64,000 bases of DNA from an uncultured Prevotella sp. (GTDB lineage Bacteria > Bacteroidota > Bacteroidia > Bacteroidales > Bacteroidaceae), in contig CAMOEW010000004.1 in NCBI GenBank assembly GCA_946612625.1, positions 3 to 64,002 of the forward strand. Reading direction: 5' to 3'. Position numbers and translations under genes: made by a program. The notes under the pieces are model-generated. The model was given only the letters and a program-made list of their open reading frames with translations, searched no databases and had not been told where the DNA came from. Below are positions 1 to 43,798 of this stretch, piece by piece (the stretch's first letter is position 1; the number at the start of each line of letters is the position of its first letter).

Positions 1-806
1 TATACGTGTCCGGCACAGCCGCCTTTCAGTTCCAGATAAGTCTTGTCGATTTCGGGCACAGTAAGTGGTGTGCTGCTGACAGCCACGATCTCGTCGCCCT
101 CTTTGGCGATATAGTTGCCGGCGTCGTCGCGCAGTGCTGTTCCGCTATCGTCGGTATAGGTGAAGTCGCCGTTGCCGCCGCCATAGATAGAGCCGATTAC
201 GATAGGCCATTTCTCTGTCACGCCGTCATCCTCGGTGGAACGGCTGGTGCGCACAAAGCAGTTCCAAGTGTCGTTGACGACGTTCATATAGGGCTTATCA
301 GAAGCAGGCGTTACACTTTCTCTGGCTTCTTCGGTTGGAATATCATCTTCCAGTTCCGTTGGCACCGTCTCGTTCACGCTTGCCGGTGTGCCGATGGTGC
401 CGGAGATGTCGTTACCGCCATATACAGCGACGGCCATGATGTCGCCGGTAGCGTTTTTGCCGTCGATGTTCACGAAGGTATGACCGCCTACGTTTGCCAT
501 TCGTGCACCGCCGAAGACGCTCTGCAGGTCGCCTTTTCTCACGGTCACCTTTGCGCTGCCTCGCACTTCGGCATGGTTTCCGCCGCCATAGACGTTTCCG
601 CCAATCTTAATCGGCTTATGTTCTTCCTGGGCAGAAGCCGGCATGGCGCATAGTGACAGAAGCCCTATGAGGCCTATGAGGCTTATAAGCCCTATATGCC
701 CTATAAGGCCTATATGCCCTATAAGCCCTATGAGCCCTATATGCCTTATAAGCCCTATAAGCCATATCATTCTCTTCGGTCCTGTTATCGTCTTCTTTTT
801 TGTCAC
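1..806 (-). CDS. 5' part of a large secreted surface protein/adhesin with VYGGG/VFGG repeats (runs off the window start)
   Basis: Manual minus-strand translation from GTG 806 (or ATG 770): KKKTITGPKRMIWLIGLIRHIGLIGLIGHIG...LLSLCAMPASAQEEHKPIKIGGNVYGGGNHAEVRGSAKVTVRKGDLQSVFGGARMANVGGHTFVNIDG...VYGGNDISG...IYGGGNGD. No stop seen in the part translated, and it has an SPI-type ASA-Q cleavage site. It is absent from the ORF track, presumably because it has no stop inside the window. Confidence 0.8.
   Translation of the reverse strand, partial: MTKKKTITGPKRMIWLIGLIRHIGLIGLIGHIGLIGHIGLISLIGLIGLLSLCAMPASAQEEHKPIKIGGNVYGGGNHAEVRGSAKVTVRKGDLQSVFGGARMANVGGHTFVNIDGKNATGDIMAVAVYGGNDISGTIGTPASVNETVPTELEDDIPTEEARESVTPASDKPYMNVVNDTWNCFVRTSRSTEDDGVTEKWPIVIGSIYGGGNGDFTYTDDSGTALRDDAGNYIAKEGDEIVAVSSTPLTVPEIDKTYLELKGGCAGHV
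661..768. repeat. 9-nt degenerate tandem array A (12 units, e.g. agccctatg/aggcttata/tgccctata)
   Basis: Directly visible; encodes the I-G-L/H triplets of the signal peptide of the 1..806 gene. Confidence 0.95.
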
Positions 807-821
807 TACTTCTTTTTTTGT

Positions 822-2105
822 TTATAAGTCCAGCGTTACCGTCGGACTATCGAGATCCGGTTCCGACAACATATATAGATATGTGGGCCGGATGGTCATA
901 TTCACTGTATATCGCCTGCCGCGATAGGTTTCGTATTGATCGGTCAGCAACTCGTTCAGTACCATAGTGTTGGTCACCTTGCAGTCCTTGCGTATCAGGT
1001 TGCCCCTGCGGTCATATACGTCGTAGATGCTGGTCAGTTTGAGTGTGCTGACAGCCTGCGGCATGAAGTGTCCCTCATGCACCGTGTAGTCTGTCGTCAG
1101 CTGCTCGCCTCCTATCGACGACCAGAACTCTGTTCCTCCGTCGATGGCGGCACCTGTCTGCTCGTAGTTGATGTCCTCGATGGCTTCTCCGCCTTCGTCG
1201 TTATGGTTCAGTGTGATGGTGATGTTGTTTTTCTGCTTGGTTGTCTCATCGCCGGCCTTGGTGCTCAGCTGCAGCGACTTCAGTTTGATGGTGCGCAGTG
1301 CGGCATAGTCGCCATAAACCTTCATTTTGATGCGCAGTGCGGCATAGAGATGGTCGAAGAGCAGGAATACGAAGTTATCTGTTCCGCCAGTGCTGGTAAT
1401 AGCCTTTGCATTAAATTTAAAGTCGCCCTGCTTCAGACCGTTGTCATGTTCCTTGTCCGTGCCGTCCTTTGCCCCAATCACCACGCATAGGTCGCCCGGC
1501 ATTATGGTGGGCACGTTCTGCAGTGTCACCTTTGCGCCTGTGCTGTAGCTGGCATTGCCGCCGGTTTTGTCGGTGACTCTGAACACGATGCCTGCCATGT
1601 TGGGTATATATCCGTAGAGGTAGTAGTTGCCTGCTGTGATTTCGTTTAAGTTTGTGCGCCATTTGTCGCTGCTCTTGAAGAAATGGCCCATCTTCGGTGT
1701 TTCTGTGTTTTGTGTGAAGGCGATGCCGATGGGCTGGTCGCCGTCATCATAGGTGGTATATCCTGTTGGCATGTCCCATGCTCTGGTGGGGGCGGCTGTT
1801 CTGGCGGCTTCGCTGGTTGTCGCGGTTGCGTTGGCCCTGCTGGTGGGGGCGGTTGCGTTGGCCCTGCTGGTGCCGTTGGCGTCTTCGTAGAGTGTGGCAT
1901 AGCTTGCCACCTCTATCTCGGCGGCCATGGCTGCCGGCGGCGCCGCCGGCTCTTCGCCGGAGCTGCAGCTCGCGAGCCCTATAAGGCTTATAAGGCCTAT
2001 AAGGCTTATAGGGCCTATATGGCTTATATGCCCTATATGGCCTATGAGGCTTATCTGCCCTATGAGCCTTATGCCTTTTTCTGCTATTGTCTCTTTTATC
2101 TTCAT
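822..2105 (-). CDS. Fimbrillin-like lipoprotein (minor type V pilin)
   Basis: Lipobox LASC after the repeat-derived h-region, TRA/SRA propeptide motifs, 'FLLFDHLYAALRIKM' and C-terminal 'YRGRRYTVNMTI' typical of Bacteroidales fimbrillins; operon context. Confidence 0.75.
   Translation of the reverse strand: MKIKETIAEKGIRLIGQISLIGHIGHISHIGPISLIGLISLIGLASCSSGEEPAAPPAAMAAEIEVASYATLYEDANGTSRANATAPTSRANATATTSEAARTAAPTRAWDMPTGYTTYDDGDQPIGIAFTQNTETPKMGHFFKSSDKWRTNLNEITAGNYYLYGYIPNMAGIVFRVTDKTGGNASYSTGAKVTLQNVPTIMPGDLCVVIGAKDGTDKEHDNGLKQGDFKFNAKAITSTGGTDNFVFLLFDHLYAALRIKMKVYGDYAALRTIKLKSLQLSTKAGDETTKQKNNITITLNHNDEGGEAIEDINYEQTGAAIDGGTEFWSSIGGEQLTTDYTVHEGHFMPQAVSTLKLTSIYDVYDRRGNLIRKDCKVTNTMVLNELLTDQYETYRGRRYTVNMTIRPTYLYMLSEPDLDSPTVTLDL
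1783..1872. repeat. 27-30 bp degenerate tandem repeat in the pilin propeptide (SRANATAPT)
   Basis: ctggttgtcgcggttgcgttggccctg / ctggtgggggcggttgcgttggccctg plus a diverged third copy. Confidence 0.85.
1975..2073. repeat. 9-nt degenerate tandem array B (11 units)
   Basis: agccctata aggcttata aggcctata aggcttata gggcctata tggcttata tgccctata ...; encodes IRLIGQISLIGHIGHISHIGPISLIGLISLIGL. Confidence 0.95.
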
Positions 2106-2120
2106 TTCTTCTTCTTTTTC

Positions 2121-3950
2121 TTACCAGTTATACACCTCATGAGTTGCCGGGGCTTCTATCCAGGGAGTGACAGCATAGTCCACCCATCCTATCGCCACAC
2201 CGCCTTCGTCGGTAATCTTGAAGACGTAGGTGTAGCTGTATCCCGGCAGCCACTGCATATATGTTGCCGGCACCACGGCGGTCTTCCCTGCTCCGTTGAC
2301 GGTTACCTTCAGCGTGTAGCTTCCCTGCTTGGTGTTGGGCACCACCGTGTACCATCCTTCCTGTGCCTCGTCGGGATATTCCTTGAGGTCGTTCTCCGGG
2401 TCGTAGTCTTCACTGATGTATGTCGAGTCGGCTGTTGCAATAGTTTCAGCTGAGAATGCCTCCTTGATATCTTTCCCTGTCATGGGGTATGAGATTGTCA
2501 CTTTTGCCTTTTTGTATATCTTGCTGTTGTCTGACGGCAGGAAGCTCTTGTTTGTAAGTGTTATTCCCTCGCGTGGTGTTGCATATATAAATTGGAATCT
2601 CACGCGTGCGAATGGCTTTATGAACTCCAGCGTCACGGGTCTGCCGAACTGTTTGTCGGGGTATGCCGTCGGGTCGCCGGTAGAGAACCACAGCCGCGAG
2701 AAGTAGGGAGCTTCATTTGTGCTGTTGGCATTAACCTTCATACTGATCTCATAGGCCTCATAGGGCATATAGGGCCCATAAGCCTCATAAGCCTTATAAG
2801 CTCCGTAGGCCTTGTTATCCTCATCCGGTTCGGTTCTCTCTTCTTCCCAATTTGTCACTGCGAAGAAGCGGTATGCCTCTGCCGACCAGTCCCAGAACTT
2901 TATTGTTTGGTTTGGTTTTTCTGTCAGTATATACTCCCATCCGTTGGTATTGGTGGCTGAGGTGGCAGCGGTGTTGGCTGTCCAGTCCACCTGATAGCCT
3001 TGGAATACCGTCTGTCTGTCGTAGTACTCGTCTGTTCCGCTGTTGTATGACATGTTCTTGTGTCCCCAGACCTGAAAGCGTTCTACAGTAGCACTCAGCG
3101 GTGTGCCATCAGCCCTGGTCACTGTCTGCTCGCGGTTTTCGGTGCCGCTGAAGGTGATGGGCTGCTGGATGTTGGTGGGCTGTTGCGGCAGCTGTGGCAC
3201 GGCGTCGCCGCCGCCGCAGGCGCTCAGCGCAAGGCTTATAAGGCTTATGGGGCCTATGAGCCCTATATGGCCTATGAGCCCTATAAGCCCTATGAGCCCT
3301 ATATGCCCTATGAGGCCCTTGAGCTTCTGCTCCAGCTCTGCTATGTGTGCTTTCAGGCTTCTGTTTTCCTGTTCCAGCTCTGCTATGCGTGCTTGCTGGC
3401 TGTTGCGATAGCCCAGACGTGCTGCCGTCATGCGCTCGCGGATGCCTCCCTGCTCTACGAATGTCTTTTCCAAATGGGCGATGTATGCCCCGATGATATT
3501 GTCGAACTGGTGCAGCAATGTGATGGTGATATTGGCTATTGCCTCATCGCTGCGCCTGTCGATGTCGTGCATGAAGTCTTTTGACAAGTCGTGCTTCTTG
3601 CAGAACTCCCTTGTTTTTTGTGTGCGATTGTCGTCGAATGTCCACATCTGCAGGTTGCGCACGCGCAGGTAGTCCTCGTAGTCCACCAGTAGTTCTTTCA
3701 TGCTGGCTCGTGCCACATTCACGAGTTTGAGTTCTGTCTCTGCCGAGGTTGCTGCCGCGGCGCATCCTTCTGCGATGTTCTGCTTACCCGAACGCGCTGC
3801 CTGCACCATCTGGTCGATGGTGCGGTCTCCCTTGACGAGGAAATGCTTGGCGAAATAGAACGTCAGGTCATATATGACCGTGGCTTTCTTGTATGATGCC
3901 AAGTCCTGGTAGTTTCCTTTCTTGGGTAGGAAGAGCTTCGGTTCTTGCAT
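2121..3950 (-). CDS. Four-helix-bundle (IVP-like, with suffix domain) protein fused in frame to a lipoprotein signal and fimbrillin domain
   Basis: aa1-~185: 'GNYQDLASYKKATVIYD...DQMVQAARSGKQNIAEG...ETELKLVNVARASMKELLVDY' and 'FVEQGGIRERMTAAR'. Then a coiled coil, IGL repeats, lipobox LSAC (Cys245), 'VTRA', 'GWEY...QTIKFWDWSAEAYRFFA', 'WLPGYSYTYVFKI' (the same motifs as the major pilin 4136..6175). Confidence 0.85.
   Translation of the reverse strand: MQEPKLFLPKKGNYQDLASYKKATVIYDLTFYFAKHFLVKGDRTIDQMVQAARSGKQNIAEGCAAAATSAETELKLVNVARASMKELLVDYEDYLRVRNLQMWTFDDNRTQKTREFCKKHDLSKDFMHDIDRRSDEAIANITITLLHQFDNIIGAYIAHLEKTFVEQGGIRERMTAARLGYRNSQQARIAELEQENRSLKAHIAELEQKLKGLIGHIGLIGLIGLIGHIGLIGPISLISLALSACGGGDAVPQLPQQPTNIQQPITFSGTENREQTVTRADGTPLSATVERFQVWGHKNMSYNSGTDEYYDRQTVFQGYQVDWTANTAATSATNTNGWEYILTEKPNQTIKFWDWSAEAYRFFAVTNWEEERTEPDEDNKAYGAYKAYEAYGPYMPYEAYEISMKVNANSTNEAPYFSRLWFSTGDPTAYPDKQFGRPVTLEFIKPFARVRFQFIYATPREGITLTNKSFLPSDNSKIYKKAKVTISYPMTGKDIKEAFSAETIATADSTYISEDYDPENDLKEYPDEAQEGWYTVVPNTKQGSYTLKVTVNGAGKTAVVPATYMQWLPGYSYTYVFKITDEGGVAIGWVDYAVTPWIEAPATHEVYNW
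2748..2810. repeat. 9-nt degenerate tandem array C (7 units, inverted relative to A/B/D)
   Basis: ctcataggc ctcataggg catataggg cccataagc ctcataagc cttataagc tccgtaggc; encodes AYGAYKAYEAYGPYMPYEAYE. Confidence 0.9.
3232..3321. repeat. 9-nt degenerate tandem array D (10 units)
   Basis: aggcttata aggcttatg gggcctatg agccctata tggcctatg ...; encodes GLIGHIGLIGLIGLIGHIGLIGPISLISL at the junction of the four-helix bundle and the pilin. Confidence 0.95.
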
Positions 3951-3986
3951 ATTGTTTTCTATTTATTTCGTTCTTTTATCTTTGTC

Positions 3987-4120
3987 CCGGGGCACCGGCC
4001 CCGGTGTTTTGTTGTTGTTTTGTTTTTTCTTTTTTCTTTTTTCTTTTGGAGTTCATCAGGGAGTCGAACCCTGATGAACTTTTTTCTATCCGAGGGAGTC
4101 GTAACTCCCGTCGGGGTAAA
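3987..4120 (-). other. Three intergenic stem-loops downstream of the major pilin
   Basis: ccggggcaccggccccgg (3987-4004); agttcatcaggg-agtcgaa-ccctgatgaact (4050-4080); ccgagggagtcgtaactcccgtcgg (~4089-4113). Confidence 0.7.
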
Positions 4121-4135
4121 TGTTAGATACACGCA

Positions 4136-6175
4136 TTAAGATGCTGAAACAACCTTGATTACTTTAACTGCATATTTATTGTTCAAGTTTCTATACTTCC
4201 TGTAACGGACTTGCTTTTTATAGTATTGAGTACTACTATCATAAGCTTCATTAGCTGGTGTAGTGCAGTCTGCATCTGTATAATATACATTATTTGTAGC
4301 ATTCCAGTCAGCAGGCTCTTCTGTCAATGTCACAGCAGTACTGAATGCATCTTCATCCCTTGTGTTGCAGTCAGCGTCTTTGTAGTACACATTCTCGTCT
4401 GATTCTACCCAATCGGCAGGAGCTGTTGACAGAACTAGCGTAGTAATGATATCACCTGGAGTGCCAGGATTTACCAAGTAAACGTATGCATATGTACCAG
4501 CAGTTGCAGGTGATAGTTTTGCAGCCTCACCAGCGTTTATGGTGATATCATTGCCATCCTCACCAGGAATTGTGGTAAAAGTATTATTTATTGTAGCAGG
4601 AGTCAGCACAAGGCCATTACGGCCAGTAATAGTAGTACCAGACACACCAGCTCGAATGTTAAGTGCATCCTCTACCAATGCCTCAGTTGGATTGGTAACA
4701 CCTGTCAGTTCGTAGAAGAAACTATTATCATTATTTAAACCGGTAATTAAAGTACCTTCGTTGTTAAGCTGTGCATAGATGTCACCTGTTTTATACTCGT
4801 CACTTGCACTATATACATGACCTTTCTGGTATGTTGTTATGCTTGGAGTAGCAACTGTTGTGATTGTGGTCTGCTTACCAGTTTCCTCATCATCAAGGAC
4901 AACAGCATCGAAGGTGATTGGGAACAAACCTTCTGGATCTGTAGTTGGATTAGTCCAACCATTGCTATTGTCGCTAATCTTAAAGATATAAGTATAAGCA
5001 TAGTTAGGCAACCACTTAGTATAAATCTGAGGTACGAACGCCCTAGCTCCATAAACTTTAATTTCCTCATTAGAACCATCATTAGAAACGAGGGTATAGT
5101 TTACACGCATCTCAAGAACAGCGCCATTTTCGTTTGGCAACATTGTCTGATAATATGTGCCAGTACCAGCAAATGAAGGATGTTGAGCTGTACGCTTAAG
5201 ATATATGTCAGGACTTCCAGTTAAAGCATCCTCACCATTAGTGTAATTCAACGCACCAAAACTTTGAGTATCTTCTGTTGTAGCACCTTCAATAGTAACA
5301 TGAGCCTTGTTGCGGTCAGTATTGCCTTCATTACCACTACCAATGTGCGGGAAGCCAATAGTATATGTACCACCTGTATAGAAGACACCATTACCAAAGA
5401 GAGTCGCATCGGTATTAGCAGAAATATTTGTACCACGAGCAGTTGAATTATCATGGAAGAAATAAACATCCTTCACAGAATAACCTGGTATAGTTTCATA
5501 AATAGCCATACGAACCTTGCTTGATAGTGAACGGAACTCGAGTTCTACTTCGTTCCTGTAATTTGTCTTAGCAACAGTCTTCATATCAGTAATGTAGCAC
5601 TTTGCCAGAGCTTCTCTAGTACCTTTCAAAGTGTATGCACTAGTAATCTGGTACTTTCCAGTTAAACCAATTTGGGTTGCATTGTAACTAATTGGTGTTG
5701 CAAGTATTTGGCTTGCTCCAGGATCACCAGAGGTTATAATAGTGTTGCCACTACCAACAGAGTAAGCTGCAAAATCATAAGCTGTTGTACTGTAATCCCA
5801 GTACTTTATTGACTGAGTTCCAGCAAGTGTAAAGTGATTTATCTTGCCAACATACTCCCAGTCAGCAGTATTACTCTCTGTCTTACCTGCAGTATTCTGC
5901 TCCCAATTTACAGTGTAGCTCTTGAATACATCTGACTGAACAGCACCAGTACCATCACCTTTCACACCAGTTACAATAAACTCTGCGCCAAGGAGATCTG
6001 CAGCATCTTTGTTGTACTTGTCGGCACGTGTTACGGCCTTGAAGTTGCCGCCGAATTTGATTTCCCCTGTCTCGGTTCCCTGTTTGATTTGGTCGGGAGC
6101 ATTGCCGAGATAGTCATTACTTGAGCAGCTTGCCATCGCAACGGCTGCGGCTGCGTAGAAAAATAATTTTTTCAT
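4136..6175 (-). CDS. Major fimbrillin / type V pilus shaft lipoprotein
   Basis: MKKLFFYAAAAVAMASC lipoprotein signal, 'IKFGG...VTRA' propeptide, 'DWEY..QSIKYWDYSTTAYDFAAYS', 'WLPNYAYTYIFKI', C-terminal beta-strand 'KYAVKVIKVV'. Confidence 0.8.
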   Translation of the reverse strand: MKKLFFYAAAAVAMASCSSNDYLGNAPDQIKQGTETGEIKFGGNFKAVTRADKYNKDAADLLGAEFIVTGVKGDGTGAVQSDVFKSYTVNWEQNTAGKTESNTADWEYVGKINHFTLAGTQSIKYWDYSTTAYDFAAYSVGSGNTIITSGDPGASQILATPISYNATQIGLTGKYQITSAYTLKGTREALAKCYITDMKTVAKTNYRNEVELEFRSLSSKVRMAIYETIPGYSVKDVYFFHDNSTARGTNISANTDATLFGNGVFYTGGTYTIGFPHIGSGNEGNTDRNKAHVTIEGATTEDTQSFGALNYTNGEDALTGSPDIYLKRTAQHPSFAGTGTYYQTMLPNENGAVLEMRVNYTLVSNDGSNEEIKVYGARAFVPQIYTKWLPNYAYTYIFKISDNSNGWTNPTTDPEGLFPITFDAVVLDDEETGKQTTITTVATPSITTYQKGHVYSASDEYKTGDIYAQLNNEGTLITGLNNDNSFFYELTGVTNPTEALVEDALNIRAGVSGTTITGRNGLVLTPATINNTFTTIPGEDGNDITINAGEAAKLSPATAGTYAYVYLVNPGTPGDIITTLVLSTAPADWVESDENVYYKDADCNTRDEDAFSTAVTLTEEPADWNATNNVYYTDADCTTPANEAYDSSTQYYKKQVRYRKYRNLNNKYAVKVIKVVSAS

Positions 6176-6311
6176 AATGCAATTGTTTTGTTTGTGAATA
6201 ATAATTTTATTTAACTCTGATTTTTGTCGTTTTTTTTCTTATGTTTTTTGTTGTTCTTTTTTCTCTGTTTTTCTGCCGTTGTTTAAAATTTAAGTTTAAG
6301 AGTTGTTCCTG

Positions 6312-7460
6312 TCACATTTCAATTTCATGAGTTACCTCTTCGAAGTCCTTCACCACAGCGTTGAATCCTGAGCCTCCCGAGCGTTGCGGTACCGGCACGG
6401 TGTCCATGTCGAGTTCCACTGTGATCACCCCACCTTTGTAGCGTCTCCTCACCTGGTCGGTTACGTCGAAGACTATTGTCGAGTCCATACCGTTGTTGAA
6501 CTGCACGTTCACGTCCATATAGTGATGTTTGTTGTCGTTCACCTGTTCTATTCTTGTTATTTTGTCGGGGTTGTTGTTGCATATTCCGAATGTCAGCACT
6601 CTTCCCCCGATGATATCCACTTTCTCTATTGTTCCGTCGGCGTGCGGGAAGTCGCAGTTGTTGCGTTTCGCCACGGTGTACGACACCGTGATTGGTTCCT
6701 CTCCCGTCACCTTTGTGTTGAGCACCACCGTTCGTGCCATTCCCGAGAGGTTCGACTGTCCATCGACGCTTGCTATCCTTCCCTTGTTGTTGTGCAGAAT
6801 CACCTGCGTCAGGTAGATGTACGTCACCGGTGTGAGTGTCATGTTCAGCTGTTTCACCCAGATGTTTCGTTCTGCGTCGAATGTGAATCCGTCGAGCTGT
6901 TCGTTTATCTCCTCTCCCTGTGAGTAAGCCGAGAATAGTTCCTCCGGTTGGTAGAACGAGCGTGTGTATTGCGGTGCGTTGTATCGTGCGGTGCTCATTG
7001 TCTGGTTGGTGAATGCCGTGACGTAGTCGAGCGATGTCTGCTCGTCGATGATGATGCTCTGCACTCCGTCTTCTGTGACGATGTCGTTCCATACGAGGAA
7101 GTCCCAGAATCCCCAGTGGTATTTGTCTATGAAGCGCATTCCCGTTATTACGTTGGCGTAAGTCGTGGTGTGCGGTGCGTATGGCACGCTTCCGGTGTAG
7201 TACCGTCTCAGCTGGAACAACGTCGGTTCGGTGTATCCTATCGGTCCGTCGGTCTCATCGCTCCACGGGAAGTGCCATTCGCTTCTCCAGTCGTATTGCA
7301 GTCCGAATTCCATCTCGTAGTCCCAATATACGTCGAGCGCCAGTTCCACCATTGGCAGTTCGCTCATCACCTCCGCCTCTTCGTAGAGGTGGAGTGGCGG
7401 TTCGCGCCTGCATCCTGCGAGGCATATCACGGCAGCTGCTATCATCATCAGTCGTCTCAT
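6312..7460 (-). CDS. Mfa2/FimB-like (DUF5119-type) pilus anchor/assembly lipoprotein
   Basis: Lipobox LAGC, 'FGIC', 'FDVTDQV', C-terminal 'GSGFNAVVKDF'; lies between the DUF3575-type gene and the pilin. Confidence 0.7.
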   Translation of the reverse strand: MRRLMMIAAAVICLAGCRREPPLHLYEEAEVMSELPMVELALDVYWDYEMEFGLQYDWRSEWHFPWSDETDGPIGYTEPTLFQLRRYYTGSVPYAPHTTTYANVITGMRFIDKYHWGFWDFLVWNDIVTEDGVQSIIIDEQTSLDYVTAFTNQTMSTARYNAPQYTRSFYQPEELFSAYSQGEEINEQLDGFTFDAERNIWVKQLNMTLTPVTYIYLTQVILHNNKGRIASVDGQSNLSGMARTVVLNTKVTGEEPITVSYTVAKRNNCDFPHADGTIEKVDIIGGRVLTFGICNNNPDKITRIEQVNDNKHHYMDVNVQFNNGMDSTIVFDVTDQVRRRYKGGVITVELDMDTVPVPQRSGGSGFNAVVKDFEEVTHEIEM

Positions 7461-8935
7461 CGTGTGCTGCCTCCTTTCCTTTGCGGTTCGTTAGGTCTGA
7501 AGCTGAATCCCCGTCTGCCGTTTTTGCGGTATAGCAGGTCGTAGGTCAGCGTCAGTCCCACTCGTGTCGGTCCGAACCAGTTGTATCTGTACTGTCTCAG
7601 CCTGAAGTCGGCGGCGCGTCCTGTCCAGCGGTAGTAGTAGAGTCCGTCGTGGTAGTTCAGGTTGATGAGGTTCTCATACTGGAACGGGTCGTACTTTGTC
7701 GTGAACACACCTGCCTGCACTCCCATCTCCAGTCGCCAGTGTCCTTTCCTGCTCAGCGGCATCACGTATCCCACTCCGAGTCCGCCGCCGAAGCCCTCTC
7801 CCTTGTACCCGCGGTCTTTGTTCAGTCCGATCTCGTAGATGAAGTAGTGCGCGTATGCCGAGATATAGAATCCCCTGAACGCCGGTCCTTGTCCCGGTGG
7901 GTTTTTCTTCAGTGAGCCTGAGCGCAGGTAGTACCTTCCTTCCAGCTGCCAGTTTCTTATTTCAAAGAACTTATGTTTCTCGTAGTTTTTCCACCATGGG
8001 AAGTCGAGCGATGCCCCTACGGTGAAGTGTCCTCCTTTTGGGTAGTATTCTATTGCCACGTTAGGTATCGGACAGAATCGGTCGTAACCGAAGGGCACGT
8101 ATGCTCCGTAGAAGAGCATGTTGGTTTTCACCGAGAGCAGTTCTCGCCTGTGGCGCGGGGGCTGCTGGGCTGCAGAGGCTATGGCGGTCTCGTAGGGCTT
8201 ATGGGCCTTATGGGGCATATAGGCCTTATAGGGCTCATGGGGCTCATTGGGCTCATTGGGCTTGCGGAAGAAGAGCATGAATCGTGCTGCCCTCAGTTGC
8301 GGGAAGTATTGGCTCTTCAGCCGTTGCCAGAGTCGTCCGCCGTCGGCGTTCTGCAGTTCTTTCTTCAGCTTGTAGTTGTCGAGCGTCGGCATGTATTTGT
8401 CGCATAGCTGTCTCACGCGTTCGTAGTCGCTGTCGCCCGCTTTCTGCATCATCAGGCACAGTGTGGTGTAGTCCTCGATGTGGTAGTCGGTGCTGATATA
8501 TTGTTCAGTCTGCGGGTATGCTAATTGCTTCACGATGAAGTCGTATAGTGCTTCCATGCGTTTCTTGCTCAGCCATTCGTTGTTGGCTATCGGTCCTTCT
8601 GGCGATGCTGCTCCGCTGAGGCTTATCCTGAGCAGCTTGAGGCTGTCTTTGCGTATCTGCGGAATCACTATGCTCACCAGCTCTGCCAGCACGCTGTCGT
8701 TCTGCGGCAGTTCGTATCTGTTTGCCGGGAATTCCACTTTGCCTGCGTCGCTGAATGTCAGCTCGTCGCTGATGTTGCTGTCCTGTCCCTGTGGCATCAG
8801 GCGGATGTATGGGTAGCGCTGATAGAACGAGGAGTCGGGCATCGCGAAGAGCGATGCTGCGAGCGTCTCTGCCGCTGCCGTGGCTAACAGGCAGATAGTC
8901 AGTAATATTCTCCGTGTAAACATCCTATAGCGCAT
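7457..8935 (-). CDS. OmpA-like periplasmic domain plus DUF3575-type beta-barrel protein of fimbrial operons
   Basis: 'GAASPEGPIANNEWLSKKR', 'YFPQLRAA', 'SVKTNMLFYG...PNVAIEY', 'WFGPTRVGLTLTY'. Confidence 0.8.
   Translation of the reverse strand: MRYRMFTRRILLTICLLATAAAETLAASLFAMPDSSFYQRYPYIRLMPQGQDSNISDELTFSDAGKVEFPANRYELPQNDSVLAELVSIVIPQIRKDSLKLLRISLSGAASPEGPIANNEWLSKKRMEALYDFIVKQLAYPQTEQYISTDYHIEDYTTLCLMMQKAGDSDYERVRQLCDKYMPTLDNYKLKKELQNADGGRLWQRLKSQYFPQLRAARFMLFFRKPNEPNEPHEPYKAYMPHKAHKPYETAIASAAQQPPRHRRELLSVKTNMLFYGAYVPFGYDRFCPIPNVAIEYYPKGGHFTVGASLDFPWWKNYEKHKFFEIRNWQLEGRYYLRSGSLKKNPPGQGPAFRGFYISAYAHYFIYEIGLNKDRGYKGEGFGGGLGVGYVMPLSRKGHWRLEMGVQAGVFTTKYDPFQYENLINLNYHDGLYYYRWTGRAADFRLRQYRYNWFGPTRVGLTLTYDLLYRKNGRRGFSFRPNEPQRKGGSTR
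8189..8260. repeat. 9-nt degenerate tandem array E (8 units, inverted orientation like C)
   Basis: ctcgtaggg cttatgggc cttatgggg catataggc cttataggg ctcatgggg ctcattggg ctcattggg; encodes PNEPNEPHEPYKAYMPHKAHKPYE in the interdomain linker. Confidence 0.9.
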
Positions 8936-9069
8936 ATCTTGTAATGGTTTTTTTATTGCCTGTATTGCCTGCGGGGAAACCGCAGGGCACTGTTAATCTC
9001 GTGTTTTTTTTTTATATTATGCGCACGTATTTTTAGATTGTGCGCGCGTCTCTTTTTAGTTTTGAAATA

Positions 9070-9128
9070 CAAATTTACAAAAAAAATACAAAAGTGTATA
9101 ATAATCTTACGATTTACTATACACTTTT
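9070..9128 (-). promoter_or_regulatory. Putative pilus operon promoter (-7 TAAATTTG) with an adjacent 11-bp inverted repeat
   Basis: caaattta at 9070-9077; AAAAGTGTATA-N17-TATACACTTTT at 9090-9128. Confidence 0.55.
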
Positions 9129-9156
9129 AATATTATTTAACAGAAAGAAACAATTC

Positions 9157-10170
9157 TTAGGTGTTCTGCGCCTTCACTTCCCAGATGTCGTTGGTCTCGA
9201 GCAGTTCCGTGAAATTGTGATATTTTTTCATCGTCTTCACCTCCTCGATTTGTGCTGTCACGGCTTCGTCGTAGGTCGGTGCGTCAACGTCGCGTATCAC
9301 TCCGAGTGCGATGGGGAATCCGTCGCCGTTGCCCATGAGTGCGAGCTTCAGCTGCAGTGTGTTGTCCTCGCAGTGTGCGTCGTGCACGAGTATGTCGTCC
9401 TCGGTGACTCCGTTCTCTCCGATTTTCACCACCTTCAGTCCGAATCCCTGCTGCACGAGTCCGTATTCGTTGTTTGGTCCGAAGACGAGTGGTTTTCCGT
9501 GTTCCACGTATATTGCGTTTTCCTTTCGTGCCTCAGCCTTATAAACGGCGTCGTGGCAGTGGTCGTTGAAGATTACGCAGTTCTGCAGAATCTCGCACAC
9601 AGCCGCTCCCTTGTGGTTGTATGCCGCCTTGAGTATGTCAACGGTTCCTTTTGCATCCGTAGCCACGGCTCTGGCGAAGAAATGTCCGCGCGCTCCGAAG
9701 CACAGCTCAGCTGGCCGGAATGGGTCTTCTACAGTGCCGTATGGGCTTGACTTCGACACGAATCCTCTTGGTGATGTGGGTGAATACTGTCCCTTGGTGA
9801 GTCCGTAGATACGGTTGTTCAAGAGTATCATGTTCAGGTTGACGTTCCTTCTGTTGGCGTGTATGAAGTGGTTTCCTCCGATTGCGAGTCCGTCGCCGTC
9901 GCCCGACACCTGCCACACGGTGAGGTTCGGGTTAGCCACCTTTGCTCCTGTTGCTATTGCGGCGGCACGTCCGTGGATTGTGTTCATGCCGTATGTTGCC
10001 ATATAGTGTGGCAGTCTGCTTGAGCATCCGATACCTGAAATCACTGCGATGTCTTTCGGTGCGACACCGATTTCTGCCATTGCCTTGTGTAGTGATGCGA
10101 GGAAGAAGTGGTCGCCGCATCCCGGACACCATCGAGGCTGTCCTTTTTTGAAATCATTTGCTGTAAACAT
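9157..10170 (-). CDS. korB: 2-oxoacid:ferredoxin oxidoreductase beta subunit
   Basis: WCPGCGD, SGIGCSSR, IHGRA, GDGD TPP-binding motif, YGLTKGQYSPT. Confidence 0.93.
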   Translation of the reverse strand: MFTANDFKKGQPRWCPGCGDHFFLASLHKAMAEIGVAPKDIAVISGIGCSSRLPHYMATYGMNTIHGRAAAIATGAKVANPNLTVWQVSGDGDGLAIGGNHFIHANRRNVNLNMILLNNRIYGLTKGQYSPTSPRGFVSKSSPYGTVEDPFRPAELCFGARGHFFARAVATDAKGTVDILKAAYNHKGAAVCEILQNCVIFNDHCHDAVYKAEARKENAIYVEHGKPLVFGPNNEYGLVQQGFGLKVVKIGENGVTEDDILVHDAHCEDNTLQLKLALMGNGDGFPIALGVIRDVDAPTYDEAVTAQIEEVKTMKKYHNFTELLETNDIWEVKAQNT

Positions 10171-10216
10171 ATTTTTCCTTGCAGTTATTCTGTTTTCGCT
10201 GTTTCCTCAGTTTGTT

Positions 10217-12067
10217 TTATTTATTGTTGATTATTTCTTCAAATTTTTTCACCAGTTCTTCTACCACGAATGGCTGTCCTTTCACCTCGTTGTATCGGTA
10301 TGGCACGAAGTTGTCGATTTTCATTCGCAGGTAAGCCGCGAGCTGTCCCATGTTCTGTTCAGCCACGACGACCTTGCTGTATCGTGCGAGCACCTCTGCG
10401 GTGTTTGCCGGCAGCGGGTTGATGTATTTGAAGTGCGCCTGTGCCACGCGGTATCCCTTAGCCCTGAGTTCGTCCATAGCCGAGTGCAGATGTCCGTATG
10501 TAGAGCCGAATCCCACTATCAGCAGCTGTGCGCTGTCGGCGTCGCCCTCCACTTCGAGTTCTGGCACCTTTATATTAGCTATTTTCTGTGCCCTGAGCCT
10601 TGTCATCTTGTCGTGGTTCTCCGGGTTTGTCGAGATGGCTCCTGTGTCGCTGTCCTTCTCCAGTCCTCCGAGTATATGTTCGAATCCCTCACGTCCCGGT
10701 ACAGCCCAGTATCGTGCTCCGTTGTCGGTGCGCATATACGGTGTCCACTTGCCCTTCATTTCCTCCGGCACGTATGGTGGTTTGATGTCGGGCAGCGTGT
10801 TGATGTCGGGCAGCCTGAAGGCTCCCGAGCCGTTTGCGCAGTATGCATCGGTGAGCAGCACCACCGGTGTCATGTGCTCCAGTGCGATTTTCGAAGCCTG
10901 GTATGCCGCGTCGAAGCAGTCTGTCGGGCTTGTAGCCGCGAGCACGGGCATTGGGCTTTCTCCGTTACGTCCGAAGAGCACCTGCAACAGGTCGGTCTGT
11001 TCCGACTTTGTCGGCAGTCCTGTTGCCGGTCCTCCGCGCTGTACGTCGAGCACCACGAGCGGCAGTTCCATGATTACTGCGAGGTTCATTGCCTCGCTCT
11101 TCAGGCAGATGCCCGGTCCGCTTGTCGAAGTCACTCCGAGCGCTCCTGCGAACGATGCTCCGAGTGCCGATGCACATCCGCTGATTTCGTCTTCACACTG
11201 CACGGTGGTCACTCCGAGGCTCTTGTGCTTCGACAGCTCGTGGAGCACGTCGGTAGCCGGTGTGATGGGGTATGAGCCGAGGTATAGCTTCAGTCCGGCT
11301 TTCTCTGCAGCAGCTATGAATCCGTATGCCGTGGCCTTGTTGCCGGTGATGTCCATGTATCGTCCCGGCTCCTTCACCTTCGACTCTATCCTCCGCACGT
11401 TGGTTGCGCTTGAGTGAGTGTTGTGGCCGTAGTCGTATCCTGCCTGTATGACGCGTATGTTCGCTTCGGCGACCGCCGGTTTCTTTGCGAACTTCTCCCT
11501 GAGGAAGTTATCCACCAGCTGCAGGTCTCGGTCGAAGAGCCAGCACACCAGTCCGAGTGCGAACATGTTGCGGCACTTCAGCATCGCCTTGTTGTCCATT
11601 CCGGTGTCGGCGAGTGCATCCTTCACCATCTGCGTCACTGGGCACTGTATGACGCGGTCGGGGTCGATGTTCATTTCTCCGAGGTAGTCGTCGCTCTTGA
11701 ACTCCGCCTTCTTCAGGTCGGCCGGTCCGAATGAGTCGGTGTCGATGATGATGGTGGCGTCTCTTTTTGCATATTTATACTGCGTCTTGAGTGCAGCTGC
11801 GTTCATCGCCACGAGCACGTCGGCCTTGTCGCCGGGAGTATATACCTTTCCTGCGCCGATGTGCACCTGGAATCCGCTGACGCCTGTGAGCGACCCTTGC
11901 GGAGCCCTGATGTCGGCGGGATAGTCTGGAAATGTCGAGATGCCGTTGCCCACGGTTGCGCTGACCGTGGAGAAGATGTTTCCGGCCAGCTGCATGCCGT
12001 CGCCGGAGTCGCCAGAGAATCGTACTACGACCTGGTCGAGTTCTTTTACTTCTAATTGTTCTGCCAT
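10217..12067 (-). CDS. korA: 2-oxoacid:acceptor oxidoreductase alpha subunit
   Basis: GDSGDGMQLAG, YPITPA, QCEDEI, QRGGPATGLPTK; start placed at MAEQLEV. Confidence 0.93.
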   Translation of the reverse strand: MAEQLEVKELDQVVVRFSGDSGDGMQLAGNIFSTVSATVGNGISTFPDYPADIRAPQGSLTGVSGFQVHIGAGKVYTPGDKADVLVAMNAAALKTQYKYAKRDATIIIDTDSFGPADLKKAEFKSDDYLGEMNIDPDRVIQCPVTQMVKDALADTGMDNKAMLKCRNMFALGLVCWLFDRDLQLVDNFLREKFAKKPAVAEANIRVIQAGYDYGHNTHSSATNVRRIESKVKEPGRYMDITGNKATAYGFIAAAEKAGLKLYLGSYPITPATDVLHELSKHKSLGVTTVQCEDEISGCASALGASFAGALGVTSTSGPGICLKSEAMNLAVIMELPLVVLDVQRGGPATGLPTKSEQTDLLQVLFGRNGESPMPVLAATSPTDCFDAAYQASKIALEHMTPVVLLTDAYCANGSGAFRLPDINTLPDIKPPYVPEEMKGKWTPYMRTDNGARYWAVPGREGFEHILGGLEKDSDTGAISTNPENHDKMTRLRAQKIANIKVPELEVEGDADSAQLLIVGFGSTYGHLHSAMDELRAKGYRVAQAHFKYINPLPANTAEVLARYSKVVVAEQNMGQLAAYLRMKIDNFVPYRYNEVKGQPFVVEELVKKFEEIINNK

Positions 12068-12207
12068 AGTATGTGAATTGTGATGAAAATATTCAGTGTG
12101 CAAAGAAACAAAAATTAATCGTAATCTCCAAATATATTTCATGAAAATGCATAAAACGCCCTCAATTTCTTAATATATATTCAGACGTTCTGCATATTTT
12201 TGCAACA

Positions 12208-12361
12208 GAAATGCTGTCGTTCGGAACGACGGGAATTCCTGAGCTGCGGAAATGGTGTCGTTCGGAGCACAGAGGAAACTGAAAAATCGGAAATCGTGTC
12301 GTTCGGAACGACGGGAATTCCTGGGTTGCGAAATTGGTGTCGTTCGGAGCGACGGGAAACC
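12208..12361. repeat. 41-bp palindromic tandem repeat, 4 copies (REP/BIME-like)
   Basis: gaaatgctgtcgttcggaacgacgggaattcctgagctgcg-type units at 12208, 12249, 12290, ~12330; internal palindrome GTCGTTC-G-GAACGAC. Confidence 0.85.
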
Positions 12362-12390
12362 CCACCGCGAGGTTGCCCTTTGAGTGCCCT

Positions 12391-12490
12391 ATACGTACCC
12401 CCCCCCCGTAAGGGAAGGGGGGGGTAGTATAAGGCCCTCAGAAGGGGGTGCATCCTCGGGTGCCCGGCACCCCTCCGCATCCTCTTTTTC
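12391..12490. repeat. GC-rich intergenic hairpins (poly-C/poly-G stems)
   Basis: atac..ccccccccc-gtaaggga-ggggggg..gtat and agaagggggtgc...gcatcctctttt. Confidence 0.55.
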
Positions 12491-12553
12491 CTCCGTGTTC
12501 AAGAAAATCCAAAAAAAATCCCGGAAATCCTTGCATTTGTTTGTTTTTTTTGT

Positions 12554-12561
12554 TATCTTTG
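12554..12561 (+). promoter_or_regulatory. Bacteroidetes -7 promoter box TATCTTTG
   Basis: Matches TAnnTTTG with a TTTG about 20 bp upstream. Confidence 0.6.
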
Positions 12562-12595
12562 CATTGTTTTTCCGTAACTAAAACCAATCGAAACA

Positions 12596-14257
12596 ATGAC
12601 CAAGACAGTAAAAATACGCTGTAAGAACACCGGCACGGAGCTGGAAGTGGCAGCCGGCAGCACGCTGGAAGACGTGTATGCCCAAAGCGGGCTGACGATG
12701 GCCTACGGTCCGCTGTCGGCGAAGGTGAACAACAAGGTGGAGGGTATGCACTACCAGGTGTATAACTCGAAAGACGTGGAGTTTCTCGACCTTCGCTCAC
12801 CGTCGGGCCACAGGGCATACACCCGTTCGCTGTTCTTCGTGCTGTGCAAGGCCGTACACGACCTCTACGCCCATGCGTCGGTGTATATCGACATCCCCGT
12901 GAGCAACGGCTACTATTGCGACATCCAGACGGGCGAGCCCGTCACTGCCGATGTTGTTGCCGCCATCCGTGAGCGTATGCATGAGCTCATCGCCGCCGCG
13001 CTGCCCATCCACCGTCATGAGAGCACCACCGACGAAGCTGTCGCGCTGTTCTCCCGTTATGGTGCCGCCTCGAAGGTGAAGCTGCTCTCGAGCACGGGCA
13101 AGCTCTACACCGTGTATTACGACATCGACGGCTACTACGACTACTACTACGGTGCGCTGCTGACGAACACGTCGCAGCTGCATCTGTTCGGACTGGAGAA
13201 ATACTTCGACGGCGCCCTGCTCCGCATCCCCCGTATTGACAGCCCCGGCGAGCTGGGTGCGCTGACGCGCCAGGACAAGATGTTCGAGGTGTTCAACGAG
13301 CACATCGCCTGGCAGAAGCTGCTCGGTCTGCGCACCGTGGGCGACCTGAACAGCGTTGTGGCGGACAATATGTCAACGCTTCTCATCAACGTGTCGGAGG
13401 CACTGCAGGAGAAGAAGATCGGCGCTATAGCCGACGAGATTGCGCACCGCCGGGGCGTGAAGATCGTGCTCATCGCCGGTCCGTCGAGTTCTGGCAAGAC
13501 CACCACTTGCAAGCGCCTGTCGGTACAGCTGCTCACGTGCGGCATCCGTCCTGTGGGCATCTCGCTCGACGACTATTTCCTGGACCGCGAGCAGACCCCA
13601 CGCGACGCCAATGGCGACTACGACTTCGAGAGCCTGTATGCGCTCGACCTTGAGCGTCTGAACGCCGACCTGAACGCGCTGCTCGACGGGCGCGAGGTGG
13701 AGCTGCCGCGCTACAACTTCCATACGGGCCGCAGCGAGCAGAGCGGACGGCGGCTGCGCCTGGAGGCGGGCGACGTGCTCGTGGTGGAGGGCATCCATGC
13801 GCTGAACCCCGAGCTGACGTCGCACGTGGCCGACAGTCAGCTCTTCCGCGTGTATGCCTCGGCGCTGACCACCATCCTTCTCGACGCCCACAACTACATC
13901 CCCACCACCGACAACCGTCTGCTGCGCCGCATCATCCGCGACTACAAGTACCGCGGAGTGAGTGCACAGGAGACAATCCGGCGCTGGCCGAGCGTGCGTG
14001 CCGGCGAGAACAAATGGATATTCCCGTTCCAGGAGAATGCCGACGCGATGTTCAACACGGCGATGATCTTCGAACTGGCGGTGCTCAAGAGTCAGGCGCA
14101 GCCGCTGCTGGAGCAGGTGCCGGAGTGGTCGGCGGAATACAGCGAGGCGTACCGTCTGAGGAAGTTCCTGAGCTACATCCGTCCGATCCCGGACAGCCAG
14201 ATTCCGCCGACATCGCTGCTGAGGGAGTTTCTCGGAGGGTCGTCGTTTGAATACTGA
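12596..14257 (+). CDS. Nucleoside (uridine) kinase with N-terminal ThrRS-like TGS/editing-type domains
   Basis: P-loop AGPSSSGKTT, SLDDYF, VEGIHALN, RRIIRD; ThrRS-like N-terminus. Confidence 0.88.
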   Translation: MTKTVKIRCKNTGTELEVAAGSTLEDVYAQSGLTMAYGPLSAKVNNKVEGMHYQVYNSKDVEFLDLRSPSGHRAYTRSLFFVLCKAVHDLYAHASVYIDIPVSNGYYCDIQTGEPVTADVVAAIRERMHELIAAALPIHRHESTTDEAVALFSRYGAASKVKLLSSTGKLYTVYYDIDGYYDYYYGALLTNTSQLHLFGLEKYFDGALLRIPRIDSPGELGALTRQDKMFEVFNEHIAWQKLLGLRTVGDLNSVVADNMSTLLINVSEALQEKKIGAIADEIAHRRGVKIVLIAGPSSSGKTTTCKRLSVQLLTCGIRPVGISLDDYFLDREQTPRDANGDYDFESLYALDLERLNADLNALLDGREVELPRYNFHTGRSEQSGRRLRLEAGDVLVVEGIHALNPELTSHVADSQLFRVYASALTTILLDAHNYIPTTDNRLLRRIIRDYKYRGVSAQETIRRWPSVRAGENKWIFPFQENADAMFNTAMIFELAVLKSQAQPLLEQVPEWSAEYSEAYRLRKFLSYIRPIPDSQIPPTSLLREFLGGSSFEY

Positions 14258-43513: not shown

Positions 43514-43546
43514 TTATATTACTCTTAATTCTTAATTCTTAACTCT

Positions 43547-43798
43547 TCACGGCACCGGGTCGTATCCCGAGCCTCCCCAGGGGTTGCATCTCAGTATTCT
43601 CCATATTGCAAGAGCCAGTCCCCTTATCGGACCGTGCTTGATGAGTGCCTGACGGGCATATTCCGAACAAGTGGGCGTGAACCGGCATGAAGGAGGGGTA
43701 TAGGGTGTGATGCATGTCTGATAGAATCTTATCGGCAGTAACATTATCCACACGACGACTTTTGAAACCAGTGCTGCTGCTGTCTTCAGAATATTCAT
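43547..43798 (-). CDS. yidD: Membrane protein insertion efficiency factor
   Basis: [27 protein letters not shown]. Confidence 0.94.

Follow-up and report, generated by a model that had tools for sequence, protein, structure and literature searches.

A four-helix-bundle gene and degenerate 9-nt repeat arrays in a Prevotella pilus operon: a candidate mobile cassette

The stretch of DNA analysed here (the window) comprises 64,000 nt of an uncultured Prevotella species (assembly GCA_946612625.1) and is contig C4 of the 2.18-Mb genome (G000) of a gut bacterium, with a completeness of 83%. It carries an operon whose gene order (DUF3575, DUF5119, likely major pilin, minor pilins) is that of a type V (Mfa/Fim) pilus operon. 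Five arrays of one degenerate 9-nt unit lie in four genes of this operon, one of which encodes a four-helix-bundle (4HB) domain fused to a pilin. Relatives of the 4HB gene are flanked by such arrays (their arms), and gene and arms move together between sites. We lean towards the reading that they form a mobile cassette in which the arms are recombination targets and the protein probably recognises the unit sequence, or word, of its own arms. The elements concerned are as follows.

660–767, minus strand: array A, 12 units in an I-G/S-L/H frame, the hydrophobic core of the signal peptide predicted for a large pilus-associated protein
1974–2072, minus strand: array B, 11 units, forming the signal-peptide core (LASC) of a minor-pilin lipoprotein
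2751–2813, plus strand: array C, 7 units, the reverse of A, B and D, in a polar frame (KAYGAY...), a loop in the pilin part of open reading frame (ORF) 2121–3950
3231–3320, minus strand: array D, 9 units plus 1 degenerate, the downstream arm of the 4HB cassette and signal core of the pilin lipoprotein (LSAC, Cys245)
8192–8263, plus strand: array E, 8 units, the reverse of A, B and D, in a polar frame, a variable linker before the DUF3575 domain
3402–3950, minus strand: 4HB domain with 4helix_suffix (aa 1–183), S23p/Avd fold (TIGR04258, TIGR02436, structure model)
3315–3401, minus strand: coiled-coil tail and fusion junction, from which the ribosome-binding site (RBS) and ATGA stop/start overlap of relatives are deleted (alignment with L076)

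Arrays were called with Tandem Repeats Finder and by scanning the genome with a weight matrix. Each of the five lies within 1–3 nt of where a preliminary description, made from the sequence alone, had placed it, and its statement that the 64 kb hold no others extends to the whole genome: runs of at least three units were found at these five sites only, a looser unit pattern returned the same five arrays, and three shuffled genomes gave 2-unit runs only. A suspected remnant at 285–299 is one unit only, and such 12-mers occur elsewhere in the genome 12 times, compared with 5–19 in shuffles, which is within chance. The contig ends 660 nt beyond array A. As first described, the arrays lie inside four genes, keep the frame and occur in both orientations (A, B and D one way, C and E the other). 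However, their protein contexts are not unrelated, since the hydrophobic frames of A, B and D all form signal-peptide cores and the polar frames of C and E form loops or linkers.

The 9-nt unit is quasi-palindromic (YATA-RGSCH), so that array orientation is a matter of degree. All five arrays fold as hairpins (z-scores of −6.5, −3.9, −2.4, −4.1 and −1.5 for A to E), and the RNAs of A, B and D fold at −44 to −52 kcal/mol. Within the units, isoleucine is encoded by ATA in 32 of 32 cases (28% genome-wide) and glycine by GGG in 15 of 22 (6% genome-wide). Synonymous positions are thus fixed while amino acids vary, which shows that the arrays are constrained as nucleic acid. The order of unit variants, which had been likened to a shuffled tape, is indeed indistinguishable from random (lags 1–4, P 0.06–0.73), but this does not imply a template. 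Only 2 of the 10 pairs of arrays share long tracts (A–D, 30 nt, P 0.003; A–E, 22 nt, P 0.017), which after correction is a hint of copying between them.

The 4HB domain is a member of the S23p/four-helix-bundle family. It matches TIGR04258 (E 1e-18, 66.7 bits, cut-off 40) and TIGR02436 (E 2e-6, 28 bits, cut-off 24); the match to PF05635 is weak and under its cut-off. Its structure model aligns with 2GSC (Xcc0516; Z 15.7, root mean square deviation (rmsd) 1.5, 110 aa aligned), BT_0352 (Z 12.7) and Avd (4DWL, Z 11.4, rmsd 2.2, 104 aa; 8UB7, Z 11.8), which bears out the kinship with the Avd/IVP fold proposed at the outset; the Avd matches have 8–9% identity and rank below S23p structures. The domain is basic (pI 8.8). 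Fifteen polar or acidic residues are invariant in alignment A1 (D42, R43, D46, Q47, Q50, R53, S54, Q57, N58, E61, E71, E73, E86, D90 and D93), which suggests a conserved functional surface. This is the sole 4HB (TIGR02436/TIGR04258) gene found in the genome, and it lies with all the family arrays within 8.3 kb.

The bundle (aa 1–183) does not directly abut array D, as had been stated; a coiled coil of ~26 aa lies between them. In orthologous operons the 4HB gene stands alone, with an arm on each side. At L076, L079, L080, L159, L162, L164, L174 and L178 the two genes are unfused, with an RBS, a stop codon overlapping the pilin start and then a signal-core arm. Judged by alignment with L076, a short deletion in the window removed this junction and fused the 4HB gene to the pilin. 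Array D is the downstream arm of the 4HB cassette doubling as the pilin signal peptide. The upstream arm has been lost in the window, where an A-rich tract stands at the position at which an arm follows a T-loop-like hairpin in L076. The downstream arm of L076, at the same site, has the reversed orientation and another frame.

A scan of species genomes confirmed at least 492 relatives of the 4HB gene. Among the best 80, the 500 nt upstream contained an array in 44 of 76 cases and the 500 nt downstream in 52 of 75, compared with 2–18% per distal bin. Long-type loci were pooled to 120 distinct proteins, 114 of them with both flanks. A 9- or 10-nt array stood within 330 nt of 98 of these 114 genes (86%), on both sides in 44, whereas controls gave 89 of 2,082 distal windows (4%) and 30 of 6,550 genome windows. 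Arm periods of long-type genes are nearly all 9 or 10 nt, and short-type 4HB genes had 7- or 8-nt arms at 5 of 8 checked loci. The two arms of one locus are alike, the own partner ranking top in 25 of 43 pairs. Direct orientation fits better in 34 of 43 pairs and 6 are clearly inverted, although units are partly self-complementary; inverted arms, as in the stem of an intervening sequence (IVS), do not seem to be the rule in the long-type subfamily.

The word of the arms follows the protein. On a quick tree of the 120 proteins, with unit families assigned by hand-made motif rules that left 41 of 120 rows unlabelled, the word changed 8 times among the 79 labelled rows, compared with a mean of 44 and a minimum of 39 in 300 shuffles. 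The agreement of unit family with protein clade extends across host families and reaches other phyla. Gene contexts, by comparison, are diverse (74 among 111 loci). Among protein pairs 85–95% identical, which are not independent of one another, 98 of 123 had no neighbour in common, and 60 of 60 labelled pairs had the same unit family. Because the word follows the protein while the neighbours change, the 4HB gene and its arms travel together between sites. The claim that the arrays are one family tied to the 4HB gene is supported: the window's gene is the only one of its kind found in the genome, its relatives are flanked, the word tracks the protein tree, and the fold matches Xcc0516 and Avd. 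No recurrent partner gene was found among 797 neighbour ORFs of 80 loci (the largest shared family, 9 of 80, reflects shared insertion sites), and none of these ORFs matched a reverse transcriptase motif, the sensitivity of which is uncalibrated. Phage carriage was considered and rejected: a viral collection gave 1 relative, and 9 exact array matches at loci without a 4HB gene.

The genes of the pilus operon in the window, and a hairpin between them, are as follows.

3–806, minus strand: 5' part of the gene for a large secreted protein, with array A inside and truncated where the contig ends (the L080 ortholog has 2,510 aa)
822–2105, minus strand: minor pilin lipoprotein carrying array B, named a pilin from its operon position and signal
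2121–3218, minus strand: mature minor pilin fused behind the 4HB domain, type V pilin fold
4051–4079, minus strand: hairpin following the major pilin gene, with a perfect stem and a tRNA T-loop-like loop
4136–6175, minus strand: likely major pilin lipoprotein, no array
6312–7460, minus strand: DUF5119 lipoprotein, no array
7457–8935, minus strand: DUF3575 protein carrying array E

The type V fold is demonstrated for the pilin at 2121–3218, the model of which matched Bacteroidales fimbrial proteins, FimA and Mfa2/3/4 in Foldseek (best E 8e-8), while a sequence search of solved structures gave no match. The other genes are assigned by signal, DUF5119 or DUF3575 and weak similarity.

We compared 40 loci around the best orthologs of ORF 822–2105, which had 76 other matches, spread over 68 of 400 genomes. 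Six of the 40 have a long-type 4HB gene or part of one, and all 6 carry at least three family arrays. Among the 34 without it, at least one family array occurs in 10, at least two in 3 and none in 24. Presence of the 4HB gene is scattered on the pilin tree (29 rows, on which the 10 carriers need 10 changes). Across 8 operons with the 4HB gene in the same slot, a 4HB clade is rejected on the tree of the upstream gene (p-AU 2e-56) and on those of two downstream genes (5e-8 and 0.002); since the 4HB tree conflicts with those of its neighbours, the gene has been exchanged at that slot.

Traces of exit may also be present, some alleles that lack the gene having retained a single hybrid arm. At L171 and L173 a 4HB-type leader and a polar-frame arm are joined directly to a hydrophobic pilin signal, and L172 retains an arm and a stub of the 4HB gene. 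All three look like gene losses, two of them probably by arm-to-arm deletion. Gene-less arrays resemble the arms of their own locus (0.50 versus 0.23; 0 of 20,000 permutations) and did not track pilin similarity. At L078, arrays stand at four consecutive pilin starts.

The arrays and the fusion are not assembly artefacts, since contigs of the same species from other studies cross both, and the fusion is present in every one of the 4 full-length proteins of the cluster, counting that of the window. Between strains, arrays change length in whole units, in steps of 9 nt. Relative to the window, run X8 has 27 nt more in A, 27 nt more in B and 27 nt less in D; its gain in B is a copy of the adjacent three units (26 of 27 identical). 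Array B is longer by 18 and 9 nt in two further runs, as inferred from record-length spans, and array D has 7 to 11 units over 4 full-length alleles of the protein cluster. The protein sequence of array C is unchanged in 5 of 5 cluster members, and 12 of 13 other alleles of array E differ from the window within the array, one having an extra unit. Because the alleles differ by whole units and include this near-perfect adjacent duplication, slippage or unequal exchange is all that their length changes need.

Beyond the species, the window's word was found in 10 of 300 genomes of the family, and a TIGR04258 gene in 6 of these 10 compared with 78 of the 290 others (P 0.03, with kin not independent). 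In 20 regions chosen around arrays in three of these genomes, dispersed arrays resemble repetitive extragenic palindromic (REP) elements: 27 of 28 are intergenic, and they occupy 10 of 27 available convergent spacers and 0 of 29 divergent ones, which places them in transcribed 3' regions. In G000, unlike these three genomes, the arrays lie in genes and not in spacers. Gene-less genome copies may be relics that outlived the gene or the product of independent spread.

Several other repeats and 4HB loci were noted alongside. In the window, a 27-nt repeat (1812–1872, 2.3 copies), unrelated to the 9-nt family, gives the propeptide region of ORF 822–2105 a stretch rich in Ala and Thr, and a 41-nt repeat (12208–12358, 3.7 copies) lies in the spacer upstream of a 2-oxoacid oxidoreductase-like operon. 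G000 has ~17 heptamer arrays (for example, window 43523–43547), and no short-type 4HB gene was found there. Many 7-, 8- and 11-nt tandem arrays occur at pilus gene junctions and starts in L156–L195, where L193 has a short-type 4HB gene with inverted heptamer arms. At L089–L092, L108, L111 and L123, one chromosomal slot holds two 4HB lineages with different repeat words and periods. At L016:1501–1560 and L023:1444–1560, in other genera, the same 9-nt family as in the window makes up the N-terminal signal region of secreted proteins that are unrelated.

The hairpin behind the major pilin gene recurs in L076, L080, L162, L163, L171, L173, L176, L182 and L185, with a conserved loop and stems that vary across species. 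It is possibly an RNA processing or stability signal; an Rfam scan of window 1–13000 gave no match at gathering score. The major pilin gene itself (4136–6175) is hardly covered in three other runs, and one contig has ~2.2 kb of different sequence there, a pattern that indicates allele swapping among strains of the same species.

The reading we favour starts from the association of gene and arrays, their mobility, the whole-unit variation, the fusion and the nucleic-acid constraint. The cassette would consist of the 4HB gene and the quasi-palindromic 9-nt arms that bracket it. Entry, replacement and exit would proceed by recombination of the arms with matching arrays, via host recombination or replication functions, and excision would leave a single array behind. 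Arrays would be further copied and homogenised by gene conversion and remodelled by slippage, and selection would retain hydrophobic frames in signal peptides and polar frames in loops, copies elsewhere persisting as spacers downstream of genes. We infer from these patterns that integration is arm-mediated and that A, B, C and E are scars or copies. The 4HB protein probably recognises its own repeat word, as DNA or RNA. The three routes of array remodelling proposed beforehand fare differently: local mobility and gene conversion have support, and templated addition as in diversity-generating retroelements (DGRs) does not, no reverse transcriptase or template copy having been found in the genome (83% complete). 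A bolder proposal, that the 4HB protein itself specifies the repeat, binding its cognate word and causing new arrays to be written or copied with no dedicated reverse transcriptase, seems to us rather unlikely. Were it true, 4HB lineages would be the source of unexplained 7–11-nt bacterial tandem repeats, and one such lineage would have authored the signal peptides of a pilus.

A number of results weigh against the cassette reading. Within the pilus loci, the link between arrays and the 4HB gene is non-significant once kinship is handled (~4 of 8 independent pairs agree and 0 oppose, p 0.125). Pilus operons recombine anyway, the tree of the major pilin departing from that of the minor pilin, and because the major pilin is itself often swapped, the claim of a special mechanism is weakened. 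The word of gene-less arrays tracks 4HB similarity weakly (Mantel rho 0.19–0.36, P 0.02–0.11). Counts from identity pairs are not independent, co-transfer alone gives part of the tree signal, the labels behind that signal are hand-made rules with 41 of 120 rows unlabelled, and in one protein subclade the upstream arm is absent. Neither a catalytic partner nor a terminal duplication or circular form came to light. A long-type 4HB gene with matching arms is present in only 2, possibly 3, of the 10 other repeat-family genomes, and G090 (99% complete), G093, G195 and G267 have arrays and no long-type 4HB gene. Scattering of arrays without 4HB association, which the preliminary description would have counted against the link, is therefore seen in part, in several other genomes without a detected cognate gene.

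The arrays might instead be self-propagating REP-like simple repeats, spread by slippage, hairpin template switching and conversion, with the 4HB gene moving as a passenger between recombinogenic arrays and its protein without a role in the repeat. The abundance of arrays where no cognate gene is detected, the intergenic position of 27 of 28 dispersed arrays (20 selected regions, three genomes), the hairpin folding (z −1.5 to −6.5) and the slippage-type alleles would all be expected. We nevertheless find this account doubtful, since it leaves unexplained why 86% of these genes have arms, why short-type genes have 7/8-nt arms (5 of 8 loci) and long-type genes 9/10-nt arms, and how the word persists across host families and phyla though units turn over within species. 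Slippage acting on codon triplets independently at each site, with protein-level selection for hydrophobic or flexible stretches and with no common source, would fit the whole-unit length changes and the suitability of each frame to its site. It is scarcely credible, being largely refuted by the synonymous positions that stay fixed while amino acids vary, and one word recurs in both orientations, in several frames and in the intergenic DNA of other genomes.

Two further explanations give the 4HB protein a task in the pilus. It might be an RNA-binding regulator whose operators are the array hairpins at the 5' ends of the 4HB gene and the minor-pilin genes, controlling translation or transcript processing and hence pilus stoichiometry. 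Arrays A, B and D follow closely on start codons or an ancestral start and fold stably (−44 to −52 kcal/mol), the major pilin has no array, L078 has arrays at four consecutive pilin starts, and dispersed copies sit in transcribed 3' regions (10 spacers, all convergent and none divergent); the domain has a basic pI of 8.8, and Avd acts with RNA (PMC6182149). Yet no family array occurs at 24 of the 34 orthologous pilus loci that lack the gene, C and E are internal to their genes and run the other way, one site carries opposite orientations in different species (L076 versus the window), and the contexts of 4HB genes are unrelated, so that we judge a regulatory role decidedly improbable. Still further from the evidence is a DGR-like process in which units would be added or rewritten from a template by the Avd-like protein together with a reverse transcriptase, thereby diversifying pilus proteins. 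It would suit the Avd-like fold, the random-looking order of variants and the variation of units among strains within a fixed alphabet, but no reverse transcriptase was found in the genome (83% complete) or by motif in the 797 neighbour ORFs, no template copy was found in the genome, the variable positions are not limited to adenines, and three of the arrays encode parts of signal peptides that would be removed by cleavage, rather than surfaces displayed for binding. We consider it very unlikely.

Among known systems, the cassette resembles in layout that of REP sequences and bacterial interspersed mosaic elements (BIMEs), in which a RAYT (HUH/Y1) transposase gene is flanked by its own 20–40-nt single palindromes and copies lie downstream of genes. 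Rickettsia palindromic elements, like the arrays here, are inserted in frame into genes and evolve fast. The cassette shares with REP/RAYT a flanked gene, a lineage-matched repeat and dispersed copies downstream of genes, with none between divergent genes; it differs in that the 4HB protein is an all-helical bundle without a known catalytic role and the repeats are tandem 9-mers, and the HUH/Y1 transposase family PF01797 was not found in G000. DGRs share the Avd-like fold and variation in surface-structure genes. Here, however, no reverse transcriptase was found (none in G000, in a search whose control detected one in 3 of 14 genomes), nor a template/variable pair (no non-coding copy of the unit in G000) or an adenine-specific pattern, variable positions including G/C and C/T; unit number and identity vary instead. 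The 23S rRNA IVS with its S23p ORF (Coxiella, Leptospira) belongs to the same protein superfamily and is likewise a patchy, horizontally moved selfish unit. In contrast to it, the window's 4HB gene lies between pilus genes and not in an rRNA gene, its protein has a TIGR04258 suffix and a coiled coil, 4HB arms are degenerate 9/10-nt tandem arrays and mostly direct, and gene-less copies have spread into coding genes and spacers. The system in the window belongs neither to the rRNA intervening sequences nor to the DGRs or REP/RAYT systems.

Published work comes near to this link at several points. The S23p gene start in Coxiella is preceded by 3–4 tandem heptamers of variable number (PMC4990558), PF05635 resembles Avd (PMC10053308), and Avd is a positively charged pentamer that works with RNA (PMC6182149). 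Long simple sequence repeats of 5–11 nt (Mrazek 2007, as summarised in PMC4679880) and TAACTGA repeats (PMC4679880) are similarly sporadic, near start codons and tolerated in genes as multiples of three, with a spreading mechanism given as not known; the 9-nt units here differ in being degenerate, quasi-palindromic and tied to a gene family, and 'four helix', 'helix bundle' and '23S' do not occur in that paper. Borg tandem repeats (PMC9879509) are also in frame in genes and fast-evolving but are reported to arise independently per site, whereas here one family recurs and follows the protein lineage. In the literature searched, which left most subscription papers and supplements outside, a general gene–repeat link was not found described, the Coxiella heptamers being the only instance.

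The window's cassette is likely part of a broad and undescribed gene-plus-repeat mobile system. Two old questions, the role of the widespread S23p/4HB proteins and the origin of sporadic 7–11-nt bacterial tandem repeats, become testable together, and since every protein lineage goes with a word of its own, experiments on binding and swapping come with internal controls. There is also a possible evolutionary link to the Avd of diversity-generating retroelements. For the pilus of this Prevotella, a selfish repeat would have been recruited as functional sequence, providing variable-length signal-peptide cores in three pilus proteins.

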